DNA from: a virus
Taxonomy: Duplodnaviria; Heunggongvirae; Uroviricota; Caudoviricetes
DNA: 64,000 bases
Strand: one strand, 5' to 3'
IMG/VR virus record: IMGVR_UViG_3300037455_000402
Coordinates: 10,951-74,950 of that record
Below, one piece after another: positions 1,967 to 64,000 of this stretch. Under the pieces are notes generated by a model, which was not told the origin of the DNA, searched no databases, and saw nothing but the letters and a program-made list of their open reading frames with translations. Made by a program: the position numbers and the translations under genes. Every line of letters starts with the position of its first letter. The first letter of the stretch is position 1.

Positions 1967-1978
1967 ATTATTTCCTCC

Positions 1979-2359: not shown

Positions 2360-2372
2360 TGTTTCTCCTTTC

Positions 2373-2639: not shown

Positions 2640-2665
2640 TTTTTAACTTCCTTTCTTAACCTTTT

Positions 2666-2704
2666 CTATATATATTATAACAAAAATTTCTTAAAAAGTA
2701 AATA
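2666..2704 (-). promoter_or_regulatory. sigma70-type consensus promoter (TTTACT-N18-TATAAT), repeat family
   Basis: minus-strand reading TTTACTTTTTAAGAAATTTTTGTTATAATATATAGAAAAGG; member of ~30-copy family. Confidence 0.7.
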
Positions 2705-2773
2705 AGCCGCAAGAATAAAAATTTTAATCTTGCGGCTTACTTTGAAAGAAAGGAAATATTATAGTGAAACTAT

Positions 2774-2850
2774 TGGAGCTCCCGACAGGAATCGAACCTG
2801 CAACCTTCCGCTTACAAGGCGGACGCACTACCTATTGTGCTACAAGAGCA
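2774..2850 (-). tRNA. tRNA-Thr(UGU)
   Basis: cloverleaf by hand; anticodon loop CTTGTAA; T-arm GGTTCGATTCC; G1-C72,C2-G71; CCA encoded. Confidence 0.8.
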
Positions 2851-2952
2851 TCACAAGACGGGGATTTTGATACGGAATTGAACCGTTTGATTTTTTCGGA
2901 ATAGAAATTATTTACCTTAAACTATCAAGTATAGATTGCTGAACCGTCTTAT
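2851..2952 (-). ncRNA. Y-RNA-like structured RNA, short variant (family member a)
   Basis: 5' AAUAAGACGG..CAGCAAUCUAUA box, 3' CCGUCUUGU complementary 7-bp terminal stem; internal T-arm-like ACGGTTCAATTCCGT; flanked by tRNA-Phe and tRNA-Thr. Confidence 0.45.
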
Positions 2953-3028
2953 TGGTGCCGAGGGGGAGAGTCGAACTCCCTACGCCAAGCTCTTCAGGCT
3001 TGCGCTCTACCAGTTGAGCTACCTCGGC
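2953..3028 (-). tRNA. tRNA-Phe(GAA)
   Basis: anticodon loop CTGAAGA; D-arm TAGCTCAACTGGTAGAGC; CCA encoded. Confidence 0.8.
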
Positions 3029-3169
3029 ATTGGTGTCAGTTTTACTTCGCTTTCTTATTTTTTATAGAGGCGTTATCCGCTAAGCCACATATCTGACGCT
3101 CATTGATAAATCGCTGATTGTCTGTCGGTGGTAGTTGAAACTGACAAAATCCGTGTTAACCCCTCTTAA

Positions 3170-3246
3170 TGGTCGGAGATGCGGGACTCGAACCCACAGC
3201 CTCTGCGTCCCAAGCGCAGCCGTCTACCAAATTGGCGTAATCCCCG
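3170..3246 (-). tRNA. tRNA-Pro(UGG)
   Basis: anticodon loop CTTGGGA; C1-G72 typical of bacterial Pro; CCA encoded. Confidence 0.8.
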
Positions 3247-3316
3247 AGGAGTGCGGCATTACCCAGCCGCATGGGTGAATGAAAACATTCCTTTTAATGA
3301 GAACCTTTCGGTTCTT

Positions 3317-3395
3317 TGGTGGAGAAGACGAGCCTCGAACTCGCGACCTCCTGCTTGCAAGGCAGGCGCTCTCCCAGCTGAGCTACAACCCCATT
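3317..3395 (-). tRNA. tRNA-Ala(UGC)-like with imperfect acceptor stem
   Basis: anticodon loop CTTGCAA; G3:U70 present; U5-U68 and U6-U67 mismatches in acceptor (GGGGTTG / CTTCTCC); CCA encoded. Confidence 0.55.
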
Positions 3396-4013
3396 TGACT
3401 TGAAAACTTCATAAAAAATATGATTGCCAGTTTTTATCCTGTACTCATACAACGCTACGCATTATTCAGCCACAGTGACGATAAGTCTGAGCCCCATCCC
3501 CGTCGAGATGAAACTTCTTACCGCAGTTTCCGAAGAAACCCAAGCACTAAGGGGACTCTGTTTACCCCCAACTTTCACCCGTCATTCAGAATATTTGATT
3601 ACTATAAATCTTCTTTAAAGTTTTCAAACCAAACTGAGCCTTGGGCTACTCGCACCACCGTCAGGTTCTTACACGTTTCCGTGTAAGTGTAGGCTCAACT
3701 CCATTATTTTGCGTTCCCTGTATTTGCTCACGTCTTGCGGACGTGGTCTGCAGGGTTATTCCTCACTGAGGCGTCTATTGTTGGAGCAACCAGTTTAGGT
3801 GTGCCATTGCTCACGTTGCACCTGTGCCACGACTTCTCTCTTGATGGCTGGTATACCATCTTGTTCCGCCGCCTTTCGACTTCGGAAAAGAAACCTTATC
3901 AAGGTATCCCTTGACCTGACCTCTCAGCAGTTTCACCGTGCCCTTGCAGAGCTGACTAAGCCCTCATTTTAACACAAGGTTACAACATACTTTTTATGAA
4001 GTTTTCAAGTTTC
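3396..4013 (-). ncRNA. candidate large structured ncRNA (~620 nt; ROOL/GOLLD-like placement)
   Basis: no ORF >90 aa on either strand; 5' ACUUGAAAACUUCAUA and 3' UAUGAAGUUUUCAAGU form a perfect 15-bp terminal stem; sits between tRNA-Ile and tRNA-Ala. Confidence 0.45.
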
Positions 4014-4763: not shown

Positions 4764-5339
4764 ATTAAATAAGCAGGTCATCAAGAGCAGTTGGCTTCGA
4801 ACCAACATCACAGCTTTAACGCTGCATCTTGTCCAGTTAGAAGATACTCTCTATCTGCACAACTTATTTTAACGTGTAGTTGCCAAACACGGTTCTATCT
4901 AACGTAGGTTGTCTCCTCGTTTGTACAAATAAATTCAACTCCAGTAAGTATTCCATTGATTACGTCATTCAGACGTAGAGGGCGTCGAACCCACGACTTA
5001 TCTTTCGTTAAGGCTTTACCTTTCGACTTCTCGTTAGAATTACCCGAACAGCACCACGGGGAGGTGAGAGTCATCGCTGTTCATTGATTGGAAATCATAT
5101 CAGTACGGACGTCCAATCTGGAATACCGATATTCTTTCTACGCCATCAATCAGTGGCGGCTTGTTTTAAGAGCTAATTCAAGTTGTGCTTTCCAACCTTT
5201 TTCACTCAGGTAGTATCTTCACTTGCGAACCTCAGGTTTTCCGAACTTGAAACCTTAGTAAAGCGGGAGGATTTACCTCTTGAAACCCTTCAAAGTCAGA
5301 CATTTTATTTAAAGCTAAGCAAAAATGCCAAAACTTCTC
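4764..5339 (-). ncRNA. ~575-nt non-coding spacer with tRNA-fragment-like hairpins (candidate structured RNA or tRNA pseudogene debris)
   Basis: no credible ORF; contains T-arm-like GGTTCGAAGCCAAC and GGGTTCGACGCCC without complete cloverleaves. Confidence 0.3.
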
Positions 5340-9327: not shown

Positions 9328-9401
9328 TGGTTGCCGTTGAGAGATTCGAACTCCCGATTACTGGGTCAGAGCCAGCTGTGTTACCACTTCACTAAACGGC
9401 A
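9328..9401 (-). tRNA. tRNA-Gln(CUG)
   Basis: U1-A72; anticodon stem GCTGG/CCAGT loop CTCTGAC; CCA encoded. Confidence 0.75.
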
Positions 9402-9797: not shown

Positions 9798-9871
9798 TGG
9801 TTTCCGCTGAGAGACTCGAACTCCCATTCTTGGCTTCAGAGACCAGTGTCCTACCATTAGACGAAACGGAA
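9798..9871 (-). tRNA. tRNA-Gln(CUG), second copy
   Basis: U1-A72, D-arm TCGTCTAATGGTAGGAC, anticodon loop CTCTGAA; CCA encoded. Confidence 0.7.
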
Positions 9872-13748: not shown

Positions 13749-13825
13749 TGGTTTCTCCGCTGCGATTCGAACGCAGGAATGGCAGTTTTAGAGACTGCTG
13801 TCTTGAGCCACTTGACGACGGAGAA
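13749..13825 (-). tRNA. amber suppressor tRNA(CUA), Gln-like
   Basis: U1-A72 acceptor TTCTCCG/CGGAGAA, D-arm TCGTCAAGTGGCTCAAGAC, anticodon stem GCAGT/ACTGC loop CTCTAAA (C34-U35-A36); CCA encoded. Confidence 0.75.
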
Positions 13826-13936: not shown

Positions 13937-14028
13937 TTGGCGCTGAAGTGAGGTGTCGAGCCCCATACCGCTCATCACGGTACCGCCCGTTTTCAAGACG
14001 GGGTTGCGAGCCGTCGCAATTACTCCAG
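13937..14028 (-). tRNA. tRNA-Ser(UGA)
   Basis: type II; anticodon stem CCCGT/ACGGG loop CTTGAAA; variable hairpin TACCGTGATGAGCGGTA; G73; atypical T-loop CTCGACA; CCA encoded. Confidence 0.65.
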
Positions 14029-14032
14029 CATT

Positions 14033-14269: not shown

Positions 14270-14344
14270 TGGTTGCCGCGCAAGGAATCGAACCTTGGTA
14301 CGAAGGGTTAGAGCCTTCAGTCCTGCCACTTAGACGACGCGGCA
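14270..14344 (-). tRNA. amber suppressor tRNA(CUA), second, Gln-like
   Basis: U1-A72 TGCCGCG/CGCGGCA, D-arm TCGTCTAAGTGGCAGGAC, anticodon stem GAAGG/CCTTC loop CTCTAAC; CCA encoded. Confidence 0.75.
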
Positions 14345-41714: not shown

Positions 41715-42626
41715 TTAATGAGCTGCCATATCAGCTTCATGAAGAAGCTCATAAACTGCTCTCATTTCGCCGCCGTAAAGACGCTCAAACTCATCAATGA
41801 AATTGTCTCTGAAATAATACTCCATATGCCACTGAATAAGGACAATAAGTGCTGCATAAAAGTCGTACTGCTTAGAAGCAAACTGACCAACACAACAAGC
41901 TACCATATAGGCTCCCACTTCGTGGTGATTATAGAAATGTGAATGGTCATCTTCCTTGCCGTTATACTTCATACGGGACTTAACGACAGGCTTACCAATA
42001 TCGTGGAATAATGCGGCAGTACGTGCAAGATGCTTAAGGTTCTTATCCAAACCCTTCTCTGCCGCGTGGTCAGAAGCGTACTTACTTGCCTCTAACATAT
42101 GATGAAATATATCAAGCTGATGATGAGGATTATCGTGGTCTACACCACAAGCATCAAAAAGATACTCACCGAGCGTCTTCTTGTTCTTAGGATTTGGAAT
42201 CATACGGATAGAGTCCCAGCCCTCATCAAGACGAGGAAGAGACATTTCTCTATACATACGCCAGATAACCTCTTCAGGAACGTGACGCATACGATTAGCG
42301 TTCTGCTCTAAGATAACGTCGATTTCCGTAGCTGCTACTACAGCAATCTTCTTAACGTCCTTAGGAAGTTCCTTTAAAAAATTCTTTCTACGCTTACGAG
42401 ATAAGTTCGTTGCGTCATAAACACAAGACTGTCCATTTGCAAGGTAGTTCTTTATACGCTTATGAAGCTCGTTGAATACCTCGCCGTTATGAGACTGGTC
42501 GTCCTCAGAACCGAATAACTCTGCTCGGATAGCATCTGAGGAGACAATAGGACAGCCAAGGTCACGAGCAATGAATGACTTACCAGAGCCAGCTACGCCG
42601 ACCATCATATAAAATACAGCACTCAT
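41715..42626 (-). CDS. P-loop NTPase/kinase fused to HD-domain phosphohydrolase (candidate polynucleotide kinase-phosphatase or dNTP hydrolase)
   Basis: N-terminal MMVGVAGSGKSF Walker A; C-terminal HD motifs (LFHDIGK, HHEVGAY, H..D). Confidence 0.55.
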   Translation of the reverse strand: MSAVFYMMVGVAGSGKSFIARDLGCPIVSSDAIRAELFGSEDDQSHNGEVFNELHKRIKNYLANGQSCVYDATNLSRKRRKNFLKELPKDVKKIAVVAATEIDVILEQNANRMRHVPEEVIWRMYREMSLPRLDEGWDSIRMIPNPKNKKTLGEYLFDACGVDHDNPHHQLDIFHHMLEASKYASDHAAEKGLDKNLKHLARTAALFHDIGKPVVKSRMKYNGKEDDHSHFYNHHEVGAYMVACCVGQFASKQYDFYAALIVLIQWHMEYYFRDNFIDEFERLYGGEMRAVYELLHEADMAAH

Positions 42627-42696: not shown

Positions 42697-43848
42697 TTAT
42701 TTAAAAGATTTTATTGTTGACTCATTATCAGAAGTGTAAAGGTTAATCTTTCCTTCCGCCGCCGTAAGTATCTCTGTTCCTGCAAACTCATTAGTATGAG
42801 TTACCACAAGAGAAGGCTTAGCTTTAATACCCTTCATTTCAAAATACTTAGAGTCACGAATAGCTCTTGCTACTGCGGCGTTAGCTTCTCTTTGGTCAAA
42901 TTTACCATAACGAAGAGTTCCCTGATTAGGGTTAGGCACATTCGTAGCATCAAACATATCGGCATTGATTGCCGCCTTATCGCACTCAAGGTTAGAAGTC
43001 TGTCCTATCTGTCCCTTGCCGTGACGAGTAAGGTATGTACGAGTTACATAGAGGGTTTCAATATCTACTTCCCCCTTGTCAAAGTTCTGGGCGATTATCT
43101 GAGAAGGCACTTTCGCGCCGACATAGGCAGGAGTATTATGCTCGAAGTCATAATTGTGGTCATCCGCAAGAAGAAGTCCCTGACCATTCTCAAAGACGAG
43201 AAGAGGATAAGAATGGAGAAGCGCCTTCTCTTCTGTATCATTCTTAATCAAGGTAATATGGTCATAAAACCACTGGAAGTCCTCGTCAATATTTGGTTCG
43301 AGATATTCTCCGTGAAGAAAGTTAGTAACATCTTCAGGAAGTGTACCGTCCTTATCTCTAAGGACATCCTCATAATACTTGATTATAGTATCAAGATGAT
43401 AATGAGGTGTACCTGCCATTTCAGTACAAACCCTATGACGATTTAATGACTCCCAAACGCCGCATCCCGTAGATGAATGAGACTTATCGCCGCGGCGCTC
43501 TTCTACGTTTACATTTGCAAACATATCAACGGGAGATACCATAACGCCGCCTATTTTTGCATAGACCTTGGGCGTAATTCCCATAGCTTCAAGTTCTTCC
43601 CACTCACGTCTGAACATAGCGGGATTTACCATAAACTCTTCGGAAAAGTAAGTAGCGGCACCTTTGAGAGTACCGCTACCAAAGTGGCGGAAAACTCTCC
43701 TTACGCCGTTTTCTACTACCGTATGCGCCCTCTGACAAGAGTTTGAGGGCAGGATATTGAGACAGGTTGGTGTAGATACCGCATTGGCAACGAGTCCTTT
43801 CGACTCGTCACCATAGTTAAGTCCAGTTACGATTTTAATTTCCGCCAT
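42697..43848 (-). CDS. adenylosuccinate synthetase homolog (PurA/PurZ family)
   Basis: GLNYGDESKG (PurA GDEGKGK P-loop), AHTVV (GHT), STGCG (TTGRGIGP), YVTRTYLTRHGKG; 383 aa. Confidence 0.55.
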   Translation of the reverse strand: MAEIKIVTGLNYGDESKGLVANAVSTPTCLNILPSNSCQRAHTVVENGVRRVFRHFGSGTLKGAATYFSEEFMVNPAMFRREWEELEAMGITPKVYAKIGGVMVSPVDMFANVNVEERRGDKSHSSTGCGVWESLNRHRVCTEMAGTPHYHLDTIIKYYEDVLRDKDGTLPEDVTNFLHGEYLEPNIDEDFQWFYDHITLIKNDTEEKALLHSYPLLVFENGQGLLLADDHNYDFEHNTPAYVGAKVPSQIIAQNFDKGEVDIETLYVTRTYLTRHGKGQIGQTSNLECDKAAINADMFDATNVPNPNQGTLRYGKFDQREANAAVARAIRDSKYFEMKGIKAKPSLVVTHTNEFAGTEILTAAEGKINLYTSDNESTIKSFK

Positions 43849-46044: not shown

Positions 46045-46950
46045 TTACTTAATGAGACCTCTTGCAAGCTTCATTGAAAGTGAGCCACAAATCTTACCGA
46101 AGTTCTCAATCTGAGCTACAGTCTCGGGCTCCTCCTTTACACAGTCATTGTAAATTGCTCTTGGAAGATTCTTAGCGATTGTACCAAGGTCCTTCTCGTC
46201 CCAGTTCTCTGGAACAATGCCGTCCTCAACGAACTTCTGAATTGCCTTCTCAACTCTTCTTGGAGTTACGATAGTCTCTGCAAGAGCCTCTGCAGCCTGT
46301 CTTGCTGCAATCTTTGCAGGGTCAATGTCCTTCTGAGGCTTTGACTGATGAACCTCAGAGAACTCCTTTGCAACAATCTTTACATATGCAGGAGTACCGC
46401 TGAACTTATTGTCAAGTCTGTCCTGAGACTTAATAACTACACCCTCACCTGTAGGCTCACCGCCCATCTCTGTCTTACCAACAAAAGAGTAAACGTGCTC
46501 CCAAGAGATGAAAGGACCGTCGTAAAATACAGGAACCATCTTAAGACCGCAGAACTCTGCCATCTGCTTGGTCTGCTCCCATGGAATGTACTGCTCAATC
46601 TCAGTATCCCATACGTCGAAAACATAGAACTGCTTCATCTTCTCCTGTGGGTACTTAATAGTGTGCTTAACGAGCCACTCACCGAAGAAAATGTATCTTG
46701 TACCAAGTACACAAGAAATCATAGTAGGGTCAAGTGACTGAACATACTCGTAGAAACCCTGAAGGTTGCTCTCAGGAGTAAGCTCATTTCTTCTTGAAAA
46801 AGCAATAAGCTTACCGTCCTCGCCAACTGCGATTGATGCGTTTGCACCGTCTATCTTCTCTGTAATTGTAATATGCTCTCCCACCTTGAAAGCCTCAGCG
46901 AACTTGTCCTTGAGTCTCTCAATATCAACATACTTTTTCATTAACATCAT
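46045..46950 (-). CDS. RNA ligase, T4 Rnl2-like (nick-sealing family)
   Basis: motif I EKIDGANASI (T4 Rnl2 EKIHGTNFSL), FGEW, YVFDVWDTE, EGVVIK, KIVAKEF align with Rnl2 motifs. Confidence 0.65.
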   Translation of the reverse strand: MMLMKKYVDIERLKDKFAEAFKVGEHITITEKIDGANASIAVGEDGKLIAFSRRNELTPESNLQGFYEYVQSLDPTMISCVLGTRYIFFGEWLVKHTIKYPQEKMKQFYVFDVWDTEIEQYIPWEQTKQMAEFCGLKMVPVFYDGPFISWEHVYSFVGKTEMGGEPTGEGVVIKSQDRLDNKFSGTPAYVKIVAKEFSEVHQSKPQKDIDPAKIAARQAAEALAETIVTPRRVEKAIQKFVEDGIVPENWDEKDLGTIAKNLPRAIYNDCVKEEPETVAQIENFGKICGSLSMKLARGLIK

Positions 46951-51770: not shown

Positions 51771-52075
51771 TATTCCACCTTCATTTCATATTCTTTACCA
51801 GTTTCTTTGTCTTTAAAAATTACTTTTGTAGTTTTATCGCCTTCTTTTTCTTCAATAATTGTATACTGGTCCCAATCAATTTTATCTGCTTTTGTTGCTT
51901 TAATAAGGTCATGGTCTGTAGTACAACAAATAATAATTATGATTGCTACACCTATTACCATACAACTTAAAATGGTAGTCGCAACTCCATCTTCTTCATC
52001 AAGAGTTAGCATTGCAAATACCGTACAAACTATCATTATAAATAATAAAAATGCTAACAAAGCTATTCCCATCAT
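51770..52075 (-). CDS. membrane protein (101 aa)
   Basis: two hydrophobic segments. Confidence 0.5.
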   Translation of the reverse strand: MMGIALLAFLLFIMIVCTVFAMLTLDEEDGVATTILSCMVIGVAIIIIICCTTDHDLIKATKADKIDWDQYTIIEEKEGDKTTKVIFKDKETGKEYEMKVE

Positions 52076-52626
52076 TCTCCCTCCTCATAATAAAACTCAG
52101 TCTTACAGTATTCACACTTCAAAGTTTCCAAATTAATCTTGCCGCCGCACTGTGGACAAGTTGGAACAGGACGAAGCTTACCGAGAGGTGGCTTAGGCTT
52201 TGGCTCTTCCTTCGGCTTATGTAGCTCCTCTAATTCTTCATATATCCAGACAAGAGCTTCATAATTTAATCCTCTATGACGCATTGAGAGCATATCTACA
52301 AAACAGATATGAATAGGAGTTCCTTCATTCCACTCAAATATACCAATTTTTGTTCTAAGATAATAAAAATCCTCATAAAGAGAAAAAGTTATTACCCTAT
52401 TGTATTTCTGTTCTATAAAAGATTCAGCTTTTATTATTTCATCAATTGGAGAAAAATCTTCATTATACTGGTAATACCAATGCTCACTAAAAGAAAACAT
52501 AGGATAGCCGTGAAATGTTGATATTTGTGGACTATAGTCAGGTTTTGGCTGATGACACTGCGGCATAGGAACATCTACTCTTACATCGGGAATAAAATCA
52601 CTAATCATTTCTTCTTCTCCTTCCAT
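52072..52626 (-). CDS. hypothetical protein with C-terminal zinc ribbon (184 aa)
   Basis: CPQCGGKINLETLKCEYCKTEF. Confidence 0.5.
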   Translation of the reverse strand: MEGEEEMISDFIPDVRVDVPMPQCHQPKPDYSPQISTFHGYPMFSFSEHWYYQYNEDFSPIDEIIKAESFIEQKYNRVITFSLYEDFYYLRTKIGIFEWNEGTPIHICFVDMLSMRHRGLNYEALVWIYEELEELHKPKEEPKPKPPLGKLRPVPTCPQCGGKINLETLKCEYCKTEFYYEEGE

Positions 52627-52835
52627 TTAATAAATCCGCCTACATTTATAATAAAGTAAGCTATATACATAAGCACCATTGGAACATTCATAGGCCCCAA
52701 TAAATTGACACCAATCCATGCGACGTTGCCGCCTATCCAAGCAACCCAGCCGCTACGCTTTTTAAGCATTATTAAAATATTGCCACCTAAGCTAAGGATT
52801 GCTCCAACTATTGAGAGAATTAAAATCCAATTCAT
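52605..52835 (-). CDS. small polytopic membrane protein (76 aa)
   Basis: three hydrophobic segments; promoter 52847-52886 upstream. Confidence 0.5.
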   Translation of the reverse strand: MNWILILSIVGAILSLGGNILIMLKKRSGWVAWIGGNVAWIGVNLLGPMNVPMVLMYIAYFIINVGGFIKWKEKKK

Positions 52836-52846
52836 CTTATCACCTT

Positions 52847-52886
52847 CTATATATTTATTATATCATAAATAATGTAAAAAGTAAAG
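52847..52886 (-). promoter_or_regulatory. consensus promoter TTTACT-N17/19-TATAAT
   Basis: CTTTACTTTTTACATTATTTATGATATAAT. Confidence 0.6.
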
Positions 52887-52897
52887 AGGTTTACTCT

Positions 52898-53257
52898 TTA
52901 AATTCTAAAAGAGTAAACCTCATCTGACTTTGCTGCAATTAGTTGTGTATCTATTGGTGAAATAAATTCATCGACTACCGCCATATCCCAGCGGTCTCCA
53001 CGAGGCATATGGTCTGAGACAATTAAAACTTTAATTATATTACGTTTCTCTTTATCAATCAATTTAACTGTTGTAGAAGAAATAGTACAATCATAGCTTT
53101 TATTCATAGACAAAACTCTGTGGTCTTTTACCATAAAGGCAAGTATCCTATCCCTTGCCCATGTAAAATGTTTCTCATTAGCAACAGCAATACAAGCGGT
53201 AAAATTGTCTTCTGTTAAAAATCTATGAAGTAAAAAATTAATTTCTATATCGTTCAT
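52898..53257 (-). CDS. hypothetical protein (119 aa)
   Basis: ORF track; ATG overlaps TAA of upstream GIY-YIG gene. Confidence 0.5.
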   Translation of the reverse strand: MNDIEINFLLHRFLTEDNFTACIAVANEKHFTWARDRILAFMVKDHRVLSMNKSYDCTISSTTVKLIDKEKRNIIKVLIVSDHMPRGDRWDMAVVDEFISPIDTQLIAAKSDEVYSFRI

Positions 53258-54270
53258 TATGAATTACCTGCCGTACTATTGTATCCCCATGTATTTGCAT
53301 GGTAGAATGAAATGTACTCCTTTTCCTTTCCATTTAATTCGTCAGTATCACATTCAGCAAGAACTTCAAAAGTGAAATTCTCTGCACCCTCTTCCCACAT
53401 TGCATTATAAAGCTTATTAGAAGTACCTGGCTCTGCTTTTACACCACGCTTTAAGTGAGTACGCCAACGTTCCTTAAAAGCCTATTTTGTTTGTCCGATA
53501 TAAACTTTGCCGTTTTCGAGATTGGTGATTTTATAGATACCAGTATTGCCACGTCCAGTAACAACTCGTCCTACCATTTCATTGAATGGACGCTCATAAT
53601 AGTTCTTATAAATTAATTTGTAAAGAACAGAAGGGTCGTGAAGTTCGTCGGCAATTTTGCGAAGCTTCTTAACATCTTCAATATCATTTTCAGAAAGAAC
53701 AATACGATAGAAATTTTTATCTTCTTTAATCTTTTCTGCTCTTTTATATTCCTCAATGATTTCTTGCTATTTAGCTTCAGCAGCCTTGACTTCTTTTTCA
53801 AGTTGAGCCTTTTTAGCTTTCATTTCAACAGAGAAATTCTAAAATTCTTCTGATATGTTAATCTTCTACTGGTCATAATAATCCATTACAGATTGAAGTT
53901 GTAGAGCCCCTTCTTTTGATTTGTTCTGTACCTCAGTAGCAAGTTCTGCCGCCAAAGCTTGGAGCTAATCGTCTCTTCGCTTACGAGCTGCCGCAAGGTC
54001 CATATCTAAATTCTTTATAGATTCTTCAATGGAACGACGCTTTCTCGCTGCTTCTTCTATAGCATTACCGAGTTCAAGTTTAATAGCTAATTCTTCTTCA
54101 CTAATTCTTTTCTTACGCTTAGCTTCGAGAGCCTTAAGAGCTTCCTATTTGGCTGTTTCAAAATCTTTAACTGCCTTTTCAGAAACAGATATCTGCTGGT
54201 GAACGGCTAAACAATAGCCGCCCCAGCCCGCAAAAAGACAACAGATTATAGCAATAAAAATATATCCCAC
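53257..54270 (-). CDS. GIY-YIG nuclease-domain protein (N-terminal TM helix + coiled coil), six in-frame TAG codons
   Basis: single frame from GTG (GAGGTGG RBS) to TAA; C-terminal GIYKITNLENGKVYIGQTK-TAG-AFKERWRTHL...KLYNAMWEEG...NFTFEVL GIY-YIG signature lies downstream of the TAGs. Confidence 0.6.
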
Positions 54271-54281
54271 TATAATCCACC

Positions 54282-54860
54282 TCAGTTTATAAGAAGTTCC
54301 TTTGCCATTGGAAGTGTTTCAATCCAAGCGCAGAACTCTCTCCATTCAGGAAGCCTATGGTTTTTACGCTGTTTATAGATATTTCTAAGACAACGATAGT
54401 TAGTTGTCATTCGAGCAGTAATTCTAAAGCCGCATGGATTGCTGTAGAGAACTCTTAAATAGTTCTCAGGCGTAGGATTTTCAAGATACTCTGCTACAAG
54501 TTCTTTCATTATTACAATCATACGAGGGTCTACATATTCGATATATGCGTCATCAAGTTCAAACTTGGTAATACGATGCATTGTAGACTATGATGATACA
54601 AATTCGAGAAAACGATAACGTTCTGCTTCAACCCAAGCCTTATTGGTAAAAGTTAAGTCAAAGTTGACACGAATACCAGTTAAGAACTATCCGTGTGCCT
54701 AATTATCATTATCAACCGCCTTGATTAAATTCTCTATACGCTTTAAATCTTTGTCGCTTAATATCCTATTATAATCCTACAGTTCAGTTCTCATAGGATA
54801 ACCAGATGCAATTATAGAATTGGTAAGGTCATATACTTCTGCATTATTTACTATACTCAT
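54282..54860 (-). CDS. hypothetical protein with four in-frame TAG codons
   Basis: ATG 54860 overlaps TGA of upstream gene; frame MSIVNNAEVYDLTNSIIASGYPMRTEL-TAG-DYNRILSDKDLKRIENLIKAVDNDN-TAG-AHG-TAG-FLTGIRVNF...FVSS-TAG-STMHRITKFELDD... runs uninterrupted to TGA at 54282. Confidence 0.5.
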
Positions 54861-55180
54861 TTTTCCAAGTGTCCCTCCCTTTTATAATAACCATACTTTT
54901 TGTTTAAAGTAATAATATAACACTTTTGAGTTGAACCCATGCCGCCTTTGCGTCCAGAGTCAGAATAGATATGGTATCCAGCCAACTCAATTTTATCTAA
55001 AAATTCATCTATGCCGTCAAACCAATCTTCTTCCCATAATGTTATACTATCAATTAACCATAGTCTATTTATTTGACTTATAATTTTTTCTTTATATTCT
55101 GCAATGCGTTTAAGCTCCATATCTTTTCTAAGGGCTGGAGCTTTCGCACGTTGCTCTGCGGCAGGCATAATTATACCCAT
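54857..55180 (-). CDS. hypothetical protein (107 aa)
   Basis: ORF track. Confidence 0.5.
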   Translation of the reverse strand: MGIIMPAAEQRAKAPALRKDMELKRIAEYKEKIISQINRLWLIDSITLWEEDWFDGIDEFLDKIELAGYHIYSDSGRKGGMGSTQKCYIITLNKKYGYYKREGHLEK

Positions 55181-55190
55181 TTTACCCTCC

Positions 55191-55433
55191 TTAGGAGTCA
55201 GCTTGCAACCCCTTATAAAAATCTTTTAATTCTTCAAACTCATCGTCGGTTAAACCGAAAACTTCAAAGTAAGAATAGTAATCACAGACGTCAATAGTAA
55301 GCCCGTCTTCGTCATAAATGGTTTCCATTGGGTCTCCTACAAGATTACGGCTATTGAATAGCCCGCAATCATAAGAATTAAAATTTTCCTTAATAATCTC
55401 TTTAGCCTTAGCTAATCTTTCACTTTCGCCCAT
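55191..55433 (-). CDS. hypothetical protein (80 aa)
   Basis: ORF track. Confidence 0.5.
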   Translation of the reverse strand: MGESERLAKAKEIIKENFNSYDCGLFNSRNLVGDPMETIYDEDGLTIDVCDYYSYFEVFGLTDDEFEELKDFYKGLQADS

Positions 55434-55714
55434 TATTCTTCTCCTTTCATTGAAGTAAATACTTCATCCATATTAGTTGCGATTGCATATGTTGATGACT
55501 CACTCCTTGCCATAGGAAGATAAATCATTGCAACGACTGATGCCGGCCACTTCTCAGCTAATGAAAAATCATTAAATGAAATAGCGTCCATATAAAAGTC
55601 CTGTTCAAGTTTATTCGGATAATTTTCAAGAAATTTAACAAATTCCTCTTTAGTACAGGGCTCCCTTTTAGGCTTAATAGTATACTTCTCACCACAATCC
55701 CAATCTTGCATCAT
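55433..55714 (-). CDS. hypothetical protein (93 aa)
   Basis: ORF track. Confidence 0.5.
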   Translation of the reverse strand: MMQDWDCGEKYTIKPKREPCTKEEFVKFLENYPNKLEQDFYMDAISFNDFSLAEKWPASVVAMIYLPMARSESSTYAIATNMDEVFTSMKGEE

Positions 55715-56289
55715 TCTTCTCCTTCTTCCTTAATCTCAGAACGGGTTTCTTTGCCGTCTTCCATAGCATCCCACTCTTTTAATCTGTCAAGTGTGTCAAT
55801 AAGTTCATCTGTATTAAGAGGATTATAACTCCATTTCGCCGCGTCAGCAGAGAGCATAATACCATTATATAATCCGTCAAAAGGATTTTCACTATCTGTT
55901 ACAAGTAAAGTATATGTCTTTGCATAATCAGACTGAGCCTCTACCTTCTTAATTACATAGAGAACCTCTCTACCATCAGGATATGTATGGAACATAGATA
56001 CGCCCCAGAAATGTTTAAAGCCTATCTCTCTCCATTCCTTCTTGGTAAATTTATCATTTAAATGTCTTGAAGTTGCTATCTTTTCTCCGTTTAATTGAGA
56101 AATAACTTCCTTCATTTCTTCTAATTTGCCGCTGCCTATATTTCCCATTATAATAACAGAGTCTTCAGGCTTGACAACTTTGTTCCAAGAACGAACAATC
56201 CAGTTATTCATTGCGGCAAAAGAGGGAAAGCCAAGCTTATCCCTCTACTCATTATCAAATAGCCTTAAATCTGCTATGATATATGTTGC
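55711..56289 (-). CDS. hypothetical protein; probable TTG start with one in-frame TAG upstream of the first ATG
   Basis: GAGGT RBS + TTG at ~56289; LATYIIADLRLFDNE-TAG-RDKLGFPSFAAMNNWIVRSWNK...; ATG at 56211 has no RBS. Confidence 0.35.
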
Positions 56290-56306
56290 CAATTACCTCA
56301 CCTCAA

Positions 56307-56600
56307 TTAATCCTTTGACTTAGTAGTAGTAACTGAGTTCTTGAAAAGCATACCGCAAAGAATATCAAGTCCAGCAAACTGCCAGAAAGTTAAATGGAGT
56401 GCGGTAAATCCCCATACGGTGCAAAGGATATAATTCCAAAGAAGCATACCAATCCACCAACCGAGACAAGCCAAGCCGAAACAGATACCAAGAACAAGAA
56501 GAATTATCAGGAATATACCAAATGCTCCTATAGACTCGTCCTTTGCCTTACTAAGTTCCTTTTCTAAACTACCTAATGCGCTCTGAATTAACATATTCAA
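56307..56600 (-). CDS. membrane protein with 3 TM segments (holin-like)
   Basis: GIFLIILLVLGICFGLACLGWWIGMLLWNYILCTVWGFTALHL; consensus promoter 56632-56669. Confidence 0.45.
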   Translation of the reverse strand: MNMLIQSALGSLEKELSKAKDESIGAFGIFLIILLVLGICFGLACLGWWIGMLLWNYILCTVWGFTALHLTFWQFAGLDILCGMLFKNSVTTTKSKD

Positions 56601-56631
56601 AGTCCTCCTTTTATTTATTTTCTATAATTAT

Positions 56632-56669
56632 TATATCATAATTGTAATCAAATGTCAAGTTTTTAATAA
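56632..56669 (-). promoter_or_regulatory. consensus promoter TTGACA-N17-TATAAT
   Basis: TTGACATTTGATTACAATTATGATATAAT. Confidence 0.7.
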
Positions 56670-56803
56670 TAAAAAAGAGTAGTCAATGACTACTCCTTTC
56701 GTTTGCGTGTTCCCATTTCGATATTTTCTGTTTTTGCCTTTTTACTTTTCTCGCTTACGCAATTGAGTTGCCAAGTCAATCACATATCTTTTCTAATGGG
56801 GTA

Positions 56804-57667
56804 TTAGATAGTACGGAAATAGTTTCTTTGACCATCACCGGACCATTGATTGCAAGTCCAGCCTGCAAATGCTTGTGGGTTATTAAAGTAATAATCCACC
56901 GCGTCAGACATTGCCGAATAATGAACTGAGCCGCCGCAGTAGTATTCTGCATATTTATTGAATCCCCAAGGTGCGCAAGTCTGGTCCAGTACGCCCTCGA
57001 CTGTGCCAGGCCAACGTGAGTCATTCACCATATTCATTACAGATGCTACTATCTTAGCTCTCTCATATGTATCTGCCATGCCGCCATACTCACTTGCGAC
57101 AATCTTGCAAAGCAATGTATAATCGTACTCGCTAACTGAAGGAGTAACATTGCTTATTGGTTCTACATATTCATTAATAACTTTTAAATCGGGTTTACAT
57201 TCGCTACAAATTCTACACTCAATATTCTCTGTATTCTCAATCTCAATAACTTCGCCCTGCTTTGCCCAGTGACAAGTAGAGCGGTGTATATAGTGTGTGT
57301 TTGGTTTAAACACAACAAATTCTCTTTCAGGTTCTGCCGTCTCTGGAGCCGCAACAGTAGTCTCGGCATCTGCTACTGTAGTCGAAACCTCTTCTGTTAC
57401 CACTGTTGTAGTAGTAGAAGAAAGTGTAGTTGATGTGCTTGTGGTTGTAGAAGTTGTGGATGTGCTTGTGGATGTTGAAGTAGTACCTGTTGTTACTGTG
57501 GTAGAAGTTTCTAATGTAGTAACTACTGCCGCCTTAACAGGAAAATCTACTCCGTGTGCTGTCCCACCGTCCGTATGTACAGTATGCGGTGTGGCAAAAC
57601 AAATTACGACAGCAGATGCGAATACTGCTGCCGCAATCTTAATTGATGTTTTAAGCTTCTTATTCAT
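56804..57667 (-). CDS. secreted cell-wall hydrolase, SleB/hydrolase_2-like C-terminal domain, Ser/Thr-rich linker
   Basis: signal peptide MNKKLKTSIKIAAAVFASAVVICFA; linker TTSTSTSTSTTSTTT; C-terminal ...LLCKIVASEYGGMADTYERAKIVASVMNMVNDSRWPGTVEGVLDQ...APWGF. Confidence 0.55.
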   Translation of the reverse strand: MNKKLKTSIKIAAAVFASAVVICFATPHTVHTDGGTAHGVDFPVKAAVVTTLETSTTVTTGTTSTSTSTSTTSTTTSTSTTLSSTTTTVVTEEVSTTVADAETTVAAPETAEPEREFVVFKPNTHYIHRSTCHWAKQGEVIEIENTENIECRICSECKPDLKVINEYVEPISNVTPSVSEYDYTLLCKIVASEYGGMADTYERAKIVASVMNMVNDSRWPGTVEGVLDQTCAPWGFNKYAEYYCGGSVHYSAMSDAVDYYFNNPQAFAGWTCNQWSGDGQRNYFRTI

Positions 57668-57764
57668 TAAAATTCCTCCTTTTCGTCCTTATGGACTATG
57701 AGGGGAACACGCATTTGTGTAGCGAAAACGCTACAATTATATGTAGAAATTACTAAGGAAAAGT

Positions 57765-58274
57765 CTAAAATTTATCATCTTCATTAAGATAGATATAATG
57801 AATAATAATTAAATCGTTCTTAATGATAGCCATAAATCCAGACACTCCCAAATAATTCTCATCAAATAAATGAACAATACAAGTTGTATTGTAAGATAAA
57901 GAATAATGATAACGTATAAGACCTTCAATTTGAAATTTCCAGTCTAAAGTCAATTTGCCTTTGGTTTTGTCAAAATATTCGCTTAATAGAAGCACAGCGT
58001 CTTCAAAAAGAATACCATAATTACTTAATTCAAAAATCTTGCCGCGACTTAATATGGGAACATCAGAGCTTGTAATTGCATTTTTGCCCCTTAAATTCTC
58101 TCTATGCCGAGGACTTATTGAACTAATGTAATCAAAACATCTATCAAGGACTTTCTCCATATCTGATTTAGATAAAGAGAAATAGTCATTTATCATTTTA
58201 TTAAATACTTTGACAAGTTTTTCAGGCATTGCTACTTTCTTATTATCATCTTCATAAATAGTAACGAGGCCCAT
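57765..58274 (-). CDS. hypothetical protein (169 aa)
   Basis: ORF track; AGGGGTGATAAGATG RBS. Confidence 0.5.
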   Translation of the reverse strand: MGLVTIYEDDNKKVAMPEKLVKVFNKMINDYFSLSKSDMEKVLDRCFDYISSISPRHRENLRGKNAITSSDVPILSRGKIFELSNYGILFEDAVLLLSEYFDKTKGKLTLDWKFQIEGLIRYHYSLSYNTTCIVHLFDENYLGVSGFMAIIKNDLIIIHYIYLNEDDKF

Positions 58275-58285
58275 CTTATCACCCC

Positions 58286-59383
58286 TTAGAAGGTAATTAC
58301 TTTCTTACTTGACTTACTGAAAACATTACCAGCCTTGGTATTATTGCTATTTGATTTGCCGCGATGAGTCTTAATAGTTGGACACCAGTATAAAGAATCC
58401 TTTGAACGGGTGGCGGCAACATAACAAATTCGTCTCTCTTCCTGACTAAATGTCTTTGCGCCAACGACAACTACATAAGGAAATTCAAGTCCCTTAGCAG
58501 AATGAATTGTCATTATTTTAACCTTATTTTCTTCGAGCAAATGCCCCATCTGTTCAAGGTCAAGGTCTCCACGTTTAACAATTACATTCGGAACTCCGAT
58601 TTTATTTAAATACCTTTCAGCTTCTTCAATTTCAGAATTGGCTCTACAAAGTACGGCCCAACCTGTCCAATCTTTTGTCCAAGTCATCTCTTCTGCCGCA
58701 TCAGCAAAAGAACAATTCTTATCTAAGAATCCCTGCTTTGTAAGTGTTGGTATTGCACAAGGTGAAATCTTAGGCATTGAATTTAAATAGTCATCGGCAT
58801 AACGAATAATGTTTGGTGGGTTACGATAGTTTTCTACAAGAAAATACTTTTTAAATGTAGGGTCTTCTGCAACTTCTCTGATAAATTTATCAGAAGCGCC
58901 GCGGAAGGAGTAGATAAACTGTCTTTCATCACCAACATAGAAACGATTTTCCGCTGGTATGCGAAGTATAAAATTGTATTGTAAAGGGTCTGTATCTTGG
59001 AACTCATCTACAAATAAGTAAGCAACCTTTGGATAAATTGAAGGCGGAACTGTTACAGCCTTTGATATAATTTTATCAAACTGCTCTTCCGCAATATCTC
59101 CATAAGTAGGAATGTTTGCAAGATTACAAATTTTATTTGCATAAGAGTGAATTGTTCCGATGAACATTCCTTCACATTTTTCACCAAGTCTCTTTCTCAT
59201 TTCCTCCGCCGCCTGATTGGTGAAAGTAAAAGCGACAATAGAAGAGGGCTCAACGCCCTCATCTAATAGTCTATTAACTCTTGCAATTAAGGTAGCAGTT
59301 TTACCACCAGCCGCACACGCAAGACAGAGGATATTTTTTTCTTTTGAATTTATAATGTTCTACTGTCGAATGTTGTATTCCAT
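58286..59383 (-). CDS. UvrD/Rep-family helicase-like protein (compact, ~365 aa) with in-frame TAG at codon 8
   Basis: GGAGGACTGCGTATG RBS; MEYNIRQ-TAG-NIINSKEKNILCLACAAGGKTATL (Walker A) ... VDEFQDTDPLQ (motif II) ... TIHSAKGLEF (V) ... VAATRSK (VI). Confidence 0.6.
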
Positions 59384-59407
59384 ACGCAGTCCTCCTTTTC
59401 TTTCGAA

Positions 59408-59445
59408 CTACATATATTATATCATAAAATTTTGAAAAAGTCAAT
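59408..59445 (-). promoter_or_regulatory. consensus promoter TTGACT-N17-TATAAT
   Basis: TTGACTTTTTCAAAATTTTATGATATAAT. Confidence 0.7.
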
Positions 59446-59447
59446 AA

Positions 59448-62400
59448 TTAAACGATATATTTACAAGTATCACTCGTAGGCCAATATAATGGTGTTGAAC
59501 CATGGAAATGTGCAGCGTGCTAATTTTCACAGTTAGCTATTTTGCTCATAATATTATCTGGTGATTCAGAATAAGTGTGTGTCTAATCATTATATACAAC
59601 TGGCTATTGGAAACCAGTACAGCTATGAAGATAGGCAATATTTGCCCTGTTATTAAATGTATCTACCGCAGCTGTACTATCTGTTTGTACAATTTTACCA
59701 TGCACGCTGGTATCTTGTCTATAGCCATTTGTCATATCAATACTAATACGAGCATCAGAAACCTAAGAAGATGTTGAGTTAAATATTTCACCAGTACAAT
59801 TATCATGATTAAATCTATTTACATCAAAATACTTAATATTGCCTATGAATTTAGCAATAAAGGTTGCAGTATAACGAGACATACCATCCGGTTGAGAAGC
59901 GCCTCCATTAATATCAATACGGTAACAAGAGTTTCCACTCTTATCATTTATAACGTAAAACTGTCTCCAACGACCACCATCAGTGACATAGTATAAAGTT
60001 GGGCTATCTCCATAATTGTAGAAATAACCTTCATATCTTCCTATCGGTGCGCACATTACAATTTTACCGAGTACAGTATCTCCAACTTTAACTTCGGGGT
60101 CTCCATCTGCTGTTTCGCCAGGGGATAACTATCCTGCCTATGGAGATATAGAACTCATGTTAATATTGTTATAAGCATTTATATATCCAGACAAATCATT
60201 CTTATCATCAGAGGCATCTAATCCAGTTAAACTTTTAACTGACGGAATATAGAAATACATTGCATGAACTAATGAGCTATCCCAATAAACGTCGCCCCAA
60301 CCTGTAGAACCTTCATTTGTTCTTCCGCCGCCTTGCCAAGGAGTCAAACCAACTGTTGTAACAAAAAAGGCTGGGTTCTTGGAAATATCCTTATTTGTGC
60401 CATAATAAGCTTTAATGAAATTCTTTACTGCTACAAGTCCATCATAGTTCAATGTTGCAGTAGTAGGATATTTACAAGATTTTTCTACTGGAGGCTAACT
60501 GTAACAAATATTATTGCCTAATCCACTTGGGCAATTATCTTTTTCACTACCATCGTAAGCTTTATTATAGGTATCCCATCTGAAACGATAATATCTGGTG
60601 TTTGTATTTGCAGAGTTATATACTCTTGTTTTAGTAACATTGCCTCTCATTGAAGTAAATTTATAAGTTGAACCAGCTTTTACAGAAGACATTGTAAAAG
60701 CAGTATCGCCGCCGTTATCTGTTGGTAAATAGTTTCCTATCTTTAATACATAAGCGTTATCAGTAAATAGGTTTTCAGAAGATGTTTCTTCTGCAGTTTT
60801 CTTCTTCCATGAAACTGTTTCACCCATATAGTATCCCTATCTATTTATGCCATAGTCACAAACATGAATTCCCTAATCATAAACAAGAGGTACATCTAAA
60901 TCAGTGGTAAAGCCAAAAGTGCTTGTTCTCTATGTCTAATTATTGTAAGTATAATAACCGAGAGGAGTAGTTGGCTGTCCAGCCATACCACTATCATCAA
61001 CAAGTTTTCTTGCGGCATCTTCAATAATAAAATAATTACCTTGAGAACTTCCAGTTGAAATTGTTATTTTTCCTTCATCGTCACGACTAAATGAATTAAA
61101 GAAAGGAGTAATTCTTAAATTACCATAACAAGTTTTCTTTTTTCCATCGGGACTTACTACAACCTAAGCTTTATCAAAAGGTCTTAGCCACATTATTCTT
61201 CCATTATAGTCCTGATTTGTACCATAAATAAAAGGAGAAAATCTCTTCTGTCCATTTTTTATGTGTTCATTACGTAATGAAATAACAAAAGCATATTCGT
61301 CTTCGCCATTTCTCTCGCAGACTTCTTTAAATTCCCAAGTCTGAGTTTTCTGATAATAAATAAAGAAGCCGGGGTAATAAACGCTACCATAATAATTATG
61401 TTTGTAATTATCAAAACGTAAATAAGGCATTACAACTAAATCCTATTCAGAATACTAATCACAAAGATAACTTAAACGCTTTTCAACGGTTTCTATAAAA
61501 TCATTTTTACTACCAACAAAAGTAACGGTATAGAAACCAGAAGCATCTACAGACCAATGAATTAATTCATCCCATTTATCAAACTTGTCATAATGACGAC
61601 AGTTCTCACTTTCACGTGGCGGCAAAGGAATATGAACAAAACGAATGTCACTCTTTGCTGTTTGATTTATTACGGCAATTTCAGTCCAAAGATAAAGAAC
61701 ATTCTCCCATAACTCTGAGACTTCTCTTGTTAATCCCTAAAGAGTCTTAGGAATTGGACCGTCAGTTCCAAATAGATAATTGCTAATAGCAGAAATAACT
61801 TGTGCGATTACCCAAAAGTTACGGTCTAAATCTTCTATCTCTACTCTGCGGCCGTACTGCGGCATTAAAAGCCTTAACCATTTTTCAATTAAGTCTTCTC
61901 CCTCTGCCTAATCATAAGCTTCACGGGTATATTGCATTGCAGTATCATTCTTTAATATCTCTAAAACTTCGTCTTTCTTTCTTACTTCATCATAGTTTTT
62001 ATCATCAATATTCCACCAAGGGTGAACCCATTCTTCTTCATTAGCTCTTTCTCCAATAGGGAAATTATATCCAGCATCAGAATTTTTAAGGTCAGCTATT
62101 GTAATACTATGTTCCTTAGTATCAAGAGGTAAAAGAATATTATCATTATTATTATCAAAATTATCAATTATATATTGAATAAGTTTCTAAACTGATTCAT
62201 TCCAATATTCATCTTCGCCGCCTTCTATTAAATCAACAATTCCGTCATATAATTTACTAACGAAAATTGGGTCGGTAGAACTACCATGGTCACGATGTAC
62301 GCAATCACAATTCTTTTCAATATAGTCCATTAAAGAATCCTAAGTCATTCCAGTTAAGGGAGAAGGCTCGCCATGGAGTGTGGCGAGCATATTCTTCCAA

Positions 62401-64000
62401 AAATCCTTCTATGTCTCAGGTGTTAAACCAATGGTCTATATTAACACACTTATATCAATAATTGTTTTTAAAGGTGTTAACCAGTTTTCCATTTAATCAC
62501 CTCATCTTGTATATCCATTATAAGGATATGCGTCATAATCAGGATATGTTGCTATTATCATATTATTATTAGGTCCTGCAGGATTGGTATTTGGAGTATA
62601 ATAGTTAATTCCAAGAATCTAATTCTTTTCTCCCTACTGCTAAACACTATAGCCTTTTTGAACCTAACAATAAGGAAAGTCTGTAAGATTAATGTCTAAT
62701 GTTCCCTCTGGAGTTGAACGAACTAAATCGCCACTTGTAGTAGGGTCATCTTTTTCTATCTTATAGCTATATAAACGTGGAATAGTATTGCTTCCACTCT
62801 TCTATAAATAAGCATAGTCAAAAAATGTTCTCATTATTAATTGTTTAGGATTTCTTCCACTATGCCAAATTGTTGACCCAGGGAATCTTTTATCTTTATC
62901 TCTCCAAGAGTGATAAAAGGCATCGGGATGACTTATTAAATCTGAATGGTCTCCTTCGATATTAGCCATAGTGATAATTTTTAAATACCAATCATCAACT
63001 TCCTAAACTAAACCTAAACCATGTTTAGTATAAAGTTCAAATCTATATGCTGAGGCGCCATTAGCTTCTGAATTTTCTGCCCATGCGCCAGGAACATTAT
63101 ATTCACTATATGTCCACATTGCTCCATTATTTGCGCCAGTACCAAATACATAAGGAGTATTACTTCCAGGCATATAAATAACCAATCCTAAATCAATACC
63201 TTGAGAACCTCTAATACCCTAATGAGGAACTAAAGTTGAATTTTCAACAGTATAATAAGTATATGTTCCGTGTGTTGGGTTATCTGTTCCTGCGTAGTAA
63301 TAATGACTTATCATTACGTAGAATTTAGATATATCTCGTTTTCCTTTTGCAACTATTTCTTCCTCAAAATATTTCTAAAGGACTTCATTTGCAGTTGCAA
63401 TTCTCGCTGCCTGATTAGTCTCTGCGGTCGCGCGGTCGCCATCTTGATATGGGAACATTTCAACACATTCAACTTCAATATGATGATTAAGTACAGCATC
63501 ATCATAAGTGCTAAGTAATTCTCCCTGATAATATCCTTTACTAATATTAATACTTCTTATACCCGGGTCTGCAGGAAACGGTACTGAATTTATTTCAGTT
63601 ACATAATCTACATAATCTTGACCTGAATAATTAATGTACTAAAAAGTAGAATAAATAAGAGTAGGTGTTCGTCCAATTAATCCCGCGCCTATATCGTGAA
63701 ATTCTATTTTTACTGTAATATAATGAGTATCATCAACTTCTCCAGCTATTTGAATATTATCTCTAAGAAGTCCATAGAATCTTGTTTCATCAGTAGTCTA
63801 TTCACTATCAGCATTAGATAAGAATGTTACGTATTTATATACATCTTCCTACTCCTATATTCCTACAATATAGTCTTTATAATCATTAACAGAGATTATT
63901 AATGGCTAAGTCATTTCCTCATCTTTATATAAAGGATGTATATCCCATGCTGCATTTTCTTTATTTCTGTCGTAAATCCAAACGCCTGGAAGCCATACAG
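59448..64000 (-). CDS. very large structural (tail-fibre/receptor-binding-like) protein, many in-frame TAG codons, continues beyond window
   Basis: ORF-track pieces 59763-60056, 60138-60452, 60495-60827, 61164-61430, 63003-63185 are all in one frame; checked junctions contain only TAG; Gly/Asn/Tyr/Thr-rich beta-type composition; TAA at 59448. Confidence 0.5.

Follow-up and report, generated by a model that had tools for sequence, protein, structure and literature searches.

The gene considered here is found on the minus strand, at 58286..59383, of a 64,000-nucleotide stretch of phage DNA (positions 10,951 to 74,950 of IMG/VR record IMGVR_UViG_3300037455_000402), a stretch described here in its entirety as ‘the window’. 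It encodes a compact, UvrD-like helicase of superfamily 1A (SF1A), and its eighth codon is TAG. It is highly probable that the phage reads TAG as glutamine, and that the helicase gene consequently is intact, with the TAG at codon 8 decoded as Gln. A first-pass annotation, made from the DNA letters alone, had placed this TAG ahead of the Walker A motif and had held that the native protein needs it to be read through, and both of these claims are borne out below. What that annotation missed is why. Read-through is not confined to this one TAG, that is, as genetic code 15 applies across the window, which also has genes for two suppressor transfer RNAs (tRNAs) with CUA anticodons. Given that code, and given the phage’s own suppressor tRNAs, a TAG at codon 8 is to be expected.

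In terms of mechanism, transcription probably would be from the helicase’s own sigma-70-like promoter. Ribosomes would then start at the ATG at 59383, one or the other of the two phage tRNA(CUA) would put Gln at codon 8, and translation would continue on to the TAA at 58286. The resulting product would open MEYNIRQQNII, with Q7 the glutamine of the Q-motif and with Q8 giving rise to a QQ.

Where the helicase gene starts

As read from its ATG (59383-59381; here and below, features of this gene are all on the minus strand), the helicase frame runs MEYNIRQ-TAG-NIINSKEKNILCLACAAGGKTATL... for 365 codons, i.e., 365 residues, with one in-frame TAG, up to its TAA stop (58288-58286). Preceding that ATG, as the first-pass annotation had recognized, is a Shine-Dalgarno sequence, AAGGAGG (59397-59391), separated from it by a 7-nucleotide spacer. 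Further upstream is a sigma-70-type promoter-like site, TTGACT-17 nt-(TG)TATAAT (59444-59416), which matches consensus at 11 of 12 positions, has an extended -10 TG, and is the top-ranking such site of 57600-59800; its function is presumed from this match. The AAGGAGG is kept in L001, a related locus with a helicase gene 96% identical in nucleotides to that of the window, and in L002-L005, which are four independent assemblies of one further relative (81% protein identity); the promoter-like site likewise is kept in L001 and L002. Codon 7 (59365-59363), immediately upstream of the TAG (codon 8; 59362-59360), is CAG. The Walker A motif (ACAAGGKT, residues 22-29; 59320-59297) is found 3' of the TAG and 5' of the standard-code start of this same frame.

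That standard-code start, from which an open reading frame (ORF) list gives 58286..59200, is an internal methionine, Met62 (59200-59198), and we view it as spurious. It may be argued instead that translation does begin downstream of the TAG, whether at Met62 or, via a non-canonical ATT or ATA, at codons 10-11, giving rise to an N-terminally truncated product. The longest standard-code ORF does, after all, begin at 59200, and a GGAGG is present 2 nucleotides upstream. The first-pass annotation had described this start as lacking both a ribosome-binding site and Walker A. The absence of Walker A stands, but that of a ribosome-binding site does not quite, as the GGAGG is there, if too near. Two nucleotides of Shine-Dalgarno spacing is too close for normal initiation, and the GGAGG in question (within gcg GAG GAa ATG) serves as codons for A-E-E. 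No in-frame ATG, GTG, or TTG is present between the codon-8 TAG and Met62. A product started at Met62, furthermore, would be without Q-motif, Walker A, and motif Ia, and for that reason could not bind ATP.

The codons upstream of Met62, and indeed upstream of the TAG, also look to be translated. Full-length homologs of about 365 residues number over 100, and the 120 best homologs all display the N-terminus M-x-[FYL]-N-[IV]-R-Q, and in a 73-sequence family alignment Q7 is invariant while position 8 is variable. The Pfam UvrD-helicase alignment begins at helicase residue 4 (profile position 2), and with phmmer that same residue 4 is matched with residue 11 of E. coli UvrD. The latter alignment extends across the TAG, with N-I-R-Q-[TAG] found opposite N-D-K-Q-R, from which it follows that the codon-7 CAG supplies the glutamine of the Q-motif and that the TAG is simply the next residue. 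That glutamine is the adenine-recognizing residue of SF1 helicases, and PcrA and Rep likewise possess Q-Q at the place of phage residues 7-8. From codon 9 to Met62, in addition, each difference between L001 and the window is a synonymous, third-position change, which means that codons 9-61 are translated in the MEYNIRQ frame. Together with the strong Shine-Dalgarno and promoter found before the ATG at 59383, as also kept in relatives, these observations leave a downstream start as very improbable.

Under the standard code, the codon-8 TAG would be a premature stop, and the gene thus might be taken to be a pseudogene or the TAG to be an error of sequencing or assembly. Over the whole of the gene, however, 37 of the 45 nucleotide differences from L001 are synonymous, which is to say purifying selection, and the catalytic motifs are intact. 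The same codon-8 TAG is present in L002-L005, four assemblies made independently of a diverged relative, and so is not an assembly error. Dozens of in-frame TAGs also are found in conserved neighboring genes, and in the window there are the two suppressor tRNAs as well. Pseudogene or error, therefore, can be viewed as effectively refuted.

TAG as probable glutamine

What TAG encodes can be judged from 14 related helicase genes aligned codon by codon. (Close relatives consist of five from an IMG/VR scan and four from a metagenome scan; the other 70-odd loci from each scan are distant UvrD-like and were left out.) Nine TAGs are found there, in five columns, i.e., positions 7, 8, 57, 129, and 285. 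At three of the five, every gene that does not have a TAG has a Gln codon: position 7, of the Q-motif (TAG in L007, Q in the other 13 of 13), position 57, of motif Ia, TFTNQAA (TAG in L006, L007, and L168, Q in the other 11 of 11), and position 129, of motif II, DEFQD (TAG in L169, Q in the other 13 of 13). With the remaining two, Q is a major alternative, with non-TAG genes carrying Q (5), K (6), or R (1) at position 8 and Q (4), R (5), or E (2) at position 285, at both of which L002-L005 have TAG.

Between the window and L001, TAG and CAG are exchanged in both directions. At helicase codon 8, it is the window that has TAG and L001 that has CAG. In the gene next upstream (59448..62492, minus strand), four TAGs are common to the two, and L001 has one TAG more, at a site that in the window is CAG. 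L001 itself therefore is from a recoded phage, and, as these swaps run both ways between 96%-identical genomes, TAG and CAG behave as synonymous codons. TAG here, that is, behaves as a low-frequency synonymous Gln codon, one that exchanges with both CAG and CAA between close relatives. It is also only with TAG = Q that the database gene calls of relatives translate to the query.

The window as a whole tells a similar story. Coverage by stop-to-stop ORFs rises from 0.61 to 0.77 once TAG is treated as sense, and the Gln codons of 63 minus-strand ORFs consist of 67 CAA, 238 CAG, and 58 TAG (58 of 363, versus 305 CAA or CAG). Usage is strongly gene-specific, with TAG a sense codon in approximately 12 to 15 window genes and about 50 genes without it. 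In-frame TAGs are concentrated at 53.2-64 kb, making up 38-80% of Gln codons in several of the genes found there. From a census of code-15 ORFs, the helicase’s upstream neighbor (59448..62492) is an ORF of 1014 codons with 20 in-frame TAGs, i.e., 54% of its Gln codons, and the gene upstream of that (62502..63914, minus strand) has 13 in its 470 codons.

Forty-three tRNA genes plus a transfer-messenger RNA (tmRNA) are found in the window by ARAGORN, nearly all belonging to a single array on the minus strand (2.7-19 kb). The anticodon CUA is found in two tRNAs, both tRNA-Gln-like: ‘A’ (13749..13825, minus strand; Rfam tRNA model, 54.3 bits) and ‘B’ (14270..14344, minus strand; 52.2 bits). That ‘A’ might be a doubtful call, as it was missing from a first Rfam run, was considered and rejected, the 54.3 bits having been obtained in permissive runs. 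Each resembles one of the phage’s own tRNA-Gln(CUG). The acceptor of ‘A’ (UUC.../...GAA) has the same ends as that of the tRNA-Gln(CUG) at 9798-9871, with an anticodon loop of CUCUAAA rather than CUCUGAA, and the acceptor of ‘B’ (UGCCG/CGGCA) is the same as that of the tRNA-Gln(CUG) at 9328-9401, with a loop of CUCUAAC rather than CUCUGAC. The two thus look like derivatives, via a G36-to-A change of the anticodon, of the phage’s tRNA-Gln(CUG). They are not recent duplicates of the phage tRNA-Gln genes, since overall identity to those is approximately 65-68%.

A change at position 36 is what defines a supE-type suppressor, and the comparison with supE (glnV) of E. coli is instructive. It is well established that supE, a tRNA-Gln given a CUA anticodon via a position-36 change, inserts Gln, and here too each CUA tRNA matches the acceptor of one tRNA-Gln(CUG), with an anticodon loop differing from it solely at 36. 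The tRNAs in this case, unlike supE, are phage encoded and exist as two copies, and their charging with Gln is putative. U1-A72 is a known tRNA-Gln identity element, both for GlnRS and for the GatCAB route. Among the 43 tRNAs, the combination of U1-A72 and A73 is found only in three tRNA-Gln, the two CUA tRNAs, and one CAU tRNA.

Might TAG instead be read as some other amino acid, such as pyrrolysine? By default, ARAGORN labels both CUA tRNAs as ‘Pyl’. The general tRNA model nevertheless suits both, their anticodon stems being an ordinary 5 bp and their variable regions 4-5 nucleotides in length, and they have in common with phage tRNA-Gln the U1-A72 and A73 just described. No domain for pyrrolysine synthesis, nor of PylRS, is present among the 27 proteins of the 64-kb window that were scanned against Pfam. 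A PylT-type tRNA along with pylS and pylBCD, the set that pyrrolysine decoding would call for, was not found among the CUA tRNAs and those 27 proteins of the window. As TAG also stands opposite invariant Gln at three positions of catalytic motifs and swaps with CAG between near-identical genomes, we see very little prospect of its being read as anything other than glutamine.

Some points do weigh against glutamine decoding, or at least complicate it. The gene downstream of the helicase (57750-58274, minus strand) ends ...DDKF-TAG-TFP-TAG-TAA, and so could stop at its first TAG or instead at its TAA. No code-switch machinery by which suppression might outcompete host RF1, whether a release factor or an aminoacyl-tRNA synthetase (GlnRS), was found among the 27 Pfam-scanned proteins of the window. 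The insertion of Gln at TAG is suggested by comparative data in combination with tRNA resemblance, and charging of the CUA tRNAs by the host is putative.

Other RNAs accompany these tRNAs. Within the array is a full-length ROOL RNA (3408-4003, minus strand; RF03087, 264 bits, model positions 1-574 of 574). The phage tmRNA (13302-13652, minus strand; Rfam 107.8 bits), with tag peptide ANDFAFAA, is located approximately 100 nucleotides from tRNA ‘A’, and it is speculation only that amber suppression of host stop codons is in some way tied to a demand for ribosome rescue. Between the two CUA tRNAs, at 13942-14029 (minus strand), is an RNA that ARAGORN does not call and that matches the tRNA-Sec model at 42.8 bits (gathering threshold 47; E=3.8e-7). 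Its acceptor stem is long, an extra arm is present, and its anticodon, UGA, reads the Ser codon UCA; it may be an unusual, allo-tRNA-like tRNA-Ser. In recoded gut phages, theta ribozymes are reported to adjoin tRNAs (PMC10879173). Here no theta or hepatitis delta virus (HDV)-like ribozyme was found beside the suppressor tRNAs, the single match being weak, sub-threshold, HDV-like, and not adjacent to the CUA tRNAs, though within the tRNA array (5013-5084, minus strand; RF02682, 30 bits versus a gathering threshold of 44, E=0.035).

Whether codon 8 is special

With TAG read as glutamine, functional helicase would await active amber suppression in the infected cell, and a 7-residue peptide would be the product should RF1 win out. 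A stronger claim is that this TAG is a selected, position-specific translational ‘gate’, that is, one which keeps the helicase off until suppressor tRNAs build up, yielding in the meantime an abortive 7-residue peptide, and which thereby serves as a timer for replication or repair. Recoded stops have been proposed by Borges et al. (10.1101/2021.08.26.457843) to regulate late genes. Consistent with a role in timing, three lineages (those of the window, of L002-L005, and of L007) have a TAG as codon 7 or 8, and the helicase gene is located at the edge of the TAG-dense module and has a promoter of its own.

Against such selection, 7 of the 14 related helicase genes are without any TAG, and codon 8 is CAG in the 96%-identical L001, even though the phage of that locus is itself recoded. 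Where TAGs do occur, their positions vary by lineage over the five columns given above, and half of the close relatives carry K or R as residue 8. The helicase, indeed, falls below the window’s TAG average, with 1 in 10 Gln codons versus 58 in 363.

Two statistical observations also bear on the matter. In a permutation analysis of 256 TAGs, from the window plus five related loci, TAG is biased slightly toward the 5' end among Gln codons (0.458 versus 0.481; one-sided P of approximately 0.05). This bias is marginal and is not counted here as support. T, in addition, is depleted directly 3' of in-frame TAG, at 41 of 258 versus 236 of 930 after CAA or CAG (chi-square of approximately 10; window, L002, and L166-L169), a depletion that may represent avoidance of a strong RF1 termination context. 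On the whole, we view a selected timing function for this codon as unlikely, and codon 8 as probably not special, but instead as one among the sites at which this phage has TAG for Gln.

The helicase, its neighbors, and its phage

Translated with code 15, the helicase matches four Pfam domains: PF00580 at 126.6 bits (cut-off 23; E=1.8e-36), PF13361 at 69.8 (25.6), PF13245 at 66.8 (25.1), and PF13538 at 45.5 (27.4). It also matches PHROG 1967, ‘DNA helicase’, with E=1e-69. All of the SF1A motifs are present, i.e., Q (YNIRQ, residues 3-7), I (AAGGKT, 24-29), Ia (TFTNQAA, 53-59), II (DEFQD, 126-130), III (GDERQFIYSFRGA, 151-163), IV (ENYRN, 184-188), V (TIHSAKGLEF, 292-301), and VI (YVAATRS, 321-327). 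Invariant over 73 sequences are Q7, G27, K28, D126, E127, Q129, D130, D152, Q155, R187, H294, K297, G298, Y321, and R326. The check which the first-pass annotation had suggested, i.e., of comparing a code-15 translation with UvrD-type profiles, thus comes out in its favor, as too does its description of a compact UvrD/Rep-type enzyme of about 365 residues.

How compact is seen with a confident AlphaFold2 model, which was made using P0001, a protein 98% identical to that of the window (predicted local distance difference test score, pLDDT, 89.4; predicted template-modeling score, pTM, 0.85). The model is of a compact two-domain fold followed by a disordered C-terminal tail of about 24 residues (342-365). 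Its best Foldseek matches in the PDB are UvrD, Rep, and PcrA, with TM-scores of 0.70-0.80 per query but 0.41-0.47 per target, over about 600 alignment columns. Those three (UvrD and Rep of E. coli and PcrA of Geobacillus; PDB 2is1, 3lfu, 1uaa, and 1pjr) are also the best matches by sequence (E of approximately 1e-24 to 1e-27, versus 1e-18 to 1e-20 by fold). Motifs Q through VI, including DEFQD as motif II, are held in common, and the spacing from Q-motif to GKT is that of UvrD.

The phage protein differs from these enzymes in being 365 rather than about 670-730 residues in length, in being only about 19% identical, and in having no C-terminal extension. With phmmer, query residues 4-88 correspond to UvrD 11-100, 119-198 to UvrD 213-295, and 286-331 to UvrD 552-610. 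Some 30 residues (89-118) thus stand in the place of UvrD domain 1B and some 16 (approximately 270-285) in that of 2B, the domain boundaries of UvrD being those reportedly described by Lee and Yang in 2006. Rather than the four-subdomain architecture of 1A, 1B, 2A, and 2B, therefore, only 1A and 2A segments align, making this a member of the superfamily but not an ortholog of UvrD, Rep, or PcrA. From the model it is predicted to be a minimal SF1A motor, consisting of domains 1A plus 2A, without 1B or 2B.

GajB of the Gabija defense system (PDB 8tk1 and 8sm3) is similarly a shortened, UvrD-like SF1A protein and is matched with E of approximately 1e-23. GajB, however, is about 494 residues in length, acts with GajA, and is a weaker match in fold (0.41-0.48 per query). 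No GajA-like neighbor is present at the phage helicase, the context of which is instead a conserved phage module. Some members of the helicase family (L008, at 1822-4011, as well as P0040, P0041, P0050, and P0070) contain an intein of about 360 residues inside of Walker A (...AAAGK, then the intein, ending ...VTHN, then TRTL...), and the intein of L008 itself holds an in-frame TAG.

The synteny of that module, as kept on contigs of up to 188 kb, consists of giant proteins, the helicase, a protein of about 168 residues, a cell-wall hydrolase/binding protein, ThyX, and a GIY-YIG endonuclease. Every related locus has many TAGs in its giant genes and few (0-2) in its helicase. The product of 59448..62492, for which neither a Pfam nor a PHROG match was found, has syntenic counterparts in relatives of 962-1624 residues with 4-26 TAGs, and is probably structural. 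As the TAG-dense giant genes match no family, that ‘structural’ label is based on their size and on their place beside a GH25 lysozyme in relatives. The GIY-YIG homing-endonuclease-like gene of the window (53257-54270, minus strand) contains 6 in-frame TAGs, its long N-terminal portion is coiled-coil, and it is beside ThyX in relatives as well.

TAG-free genes of the window include ones of tRNA or RNA repair and of nucleotide metabolism (Thg1, two RNA ligases, kinase/HD, NT5C, metallophosphoesterase, and PurA-like). The repair-type set, all on the minus strand, consists of a Thg1-like tRNA-His guanylyltransferase, a T4 Rnl1-like RNA ligase, a second RNA ligase, and an AAA_33 kinase plus HD protein (17996-18820, 21388-22512, 41715-42626, and 46045-46950). 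The PurA-like gene (42697-43848, minus strand; 383 residues; PF00709, E=6e-13) was considered as a possible PurZ and rejected as such, given weak matches to cellular PurA only and no PurZ structure above threshold.

The window is that of a large, uncultured phage for which TAG very probably means glutamine (genetic code 15). No close relative of 52000-64000 was found by megablast among 50,697 deposited phage genomes, and the best tblastn match of the helicase in deposited phages is to Clostridium phage Amboise, at 34% identity. With TAG-recoded gut phages (crAss-like, Lak, and the clades of Borges et al., 10.1101/2021.08.26.457843; phAss-1, PMC10607447; PMC9523058) the lineage has in common in-frame TAGs in conserved genes, phage tRNA(CUA), TAG aligned with Gln, and TAGs that are dense in some modules and absent from others, with replication genes variably recoded. 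It differs from them in joining recoding with a 43-tRNA array, a tmRNA, and a ROOL RNA, as well as in having no close deposited relative. For phages more generally, Borges et al. found recoding to occur chiefly in genes for structure and lysis, with replication genes varying in their use of it (10.1101/2021.08.26.457843), and code 15 is reported as confirmed by metaproteomics for crAss-like phages (PMC9523058).

A more ambitious, two-part proposal is that one or two ambers in TAG-poor replication or repair genes, often placed within catalytic motifs or else at a gene’s very 5' end, are a deliberate timer by which helicase synthesis is tied to suppressor tRNA expression, and that minimal UvrD-like motors, as represented by the 365-residue enzyme, make up a class which is widespread and functionally distinct. 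Lacking the regulatory and duplex-binding domains 1B and 2B, these would be unregulated translocases or protein-stripping motors rather than UvrD-type helicases. That both parts should hold is, to us, doubtful. Recoding, for its part, is a known phenomenon which here is unusually clear, and our observations do not change the current understanding of phage recoding.

With the standard code, the helicase is a 304-residue fragment without an ATP-binding site and its giant neighbors are split into many pieces, whereas code 15 restores all of these. The helicase family also is an unusually clean comparative case, as relatives use TAG for the essential Gln of the Q-motif, of motif Ia, and of DEFQD. 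Brought to light in the process are both a large, uncultured phage lineage that is without a close deposited relative, with related contigs reaching about 180-188 kb, and a minimal UvrD-like helicase that is found in hundreds of metagenomic contigs.

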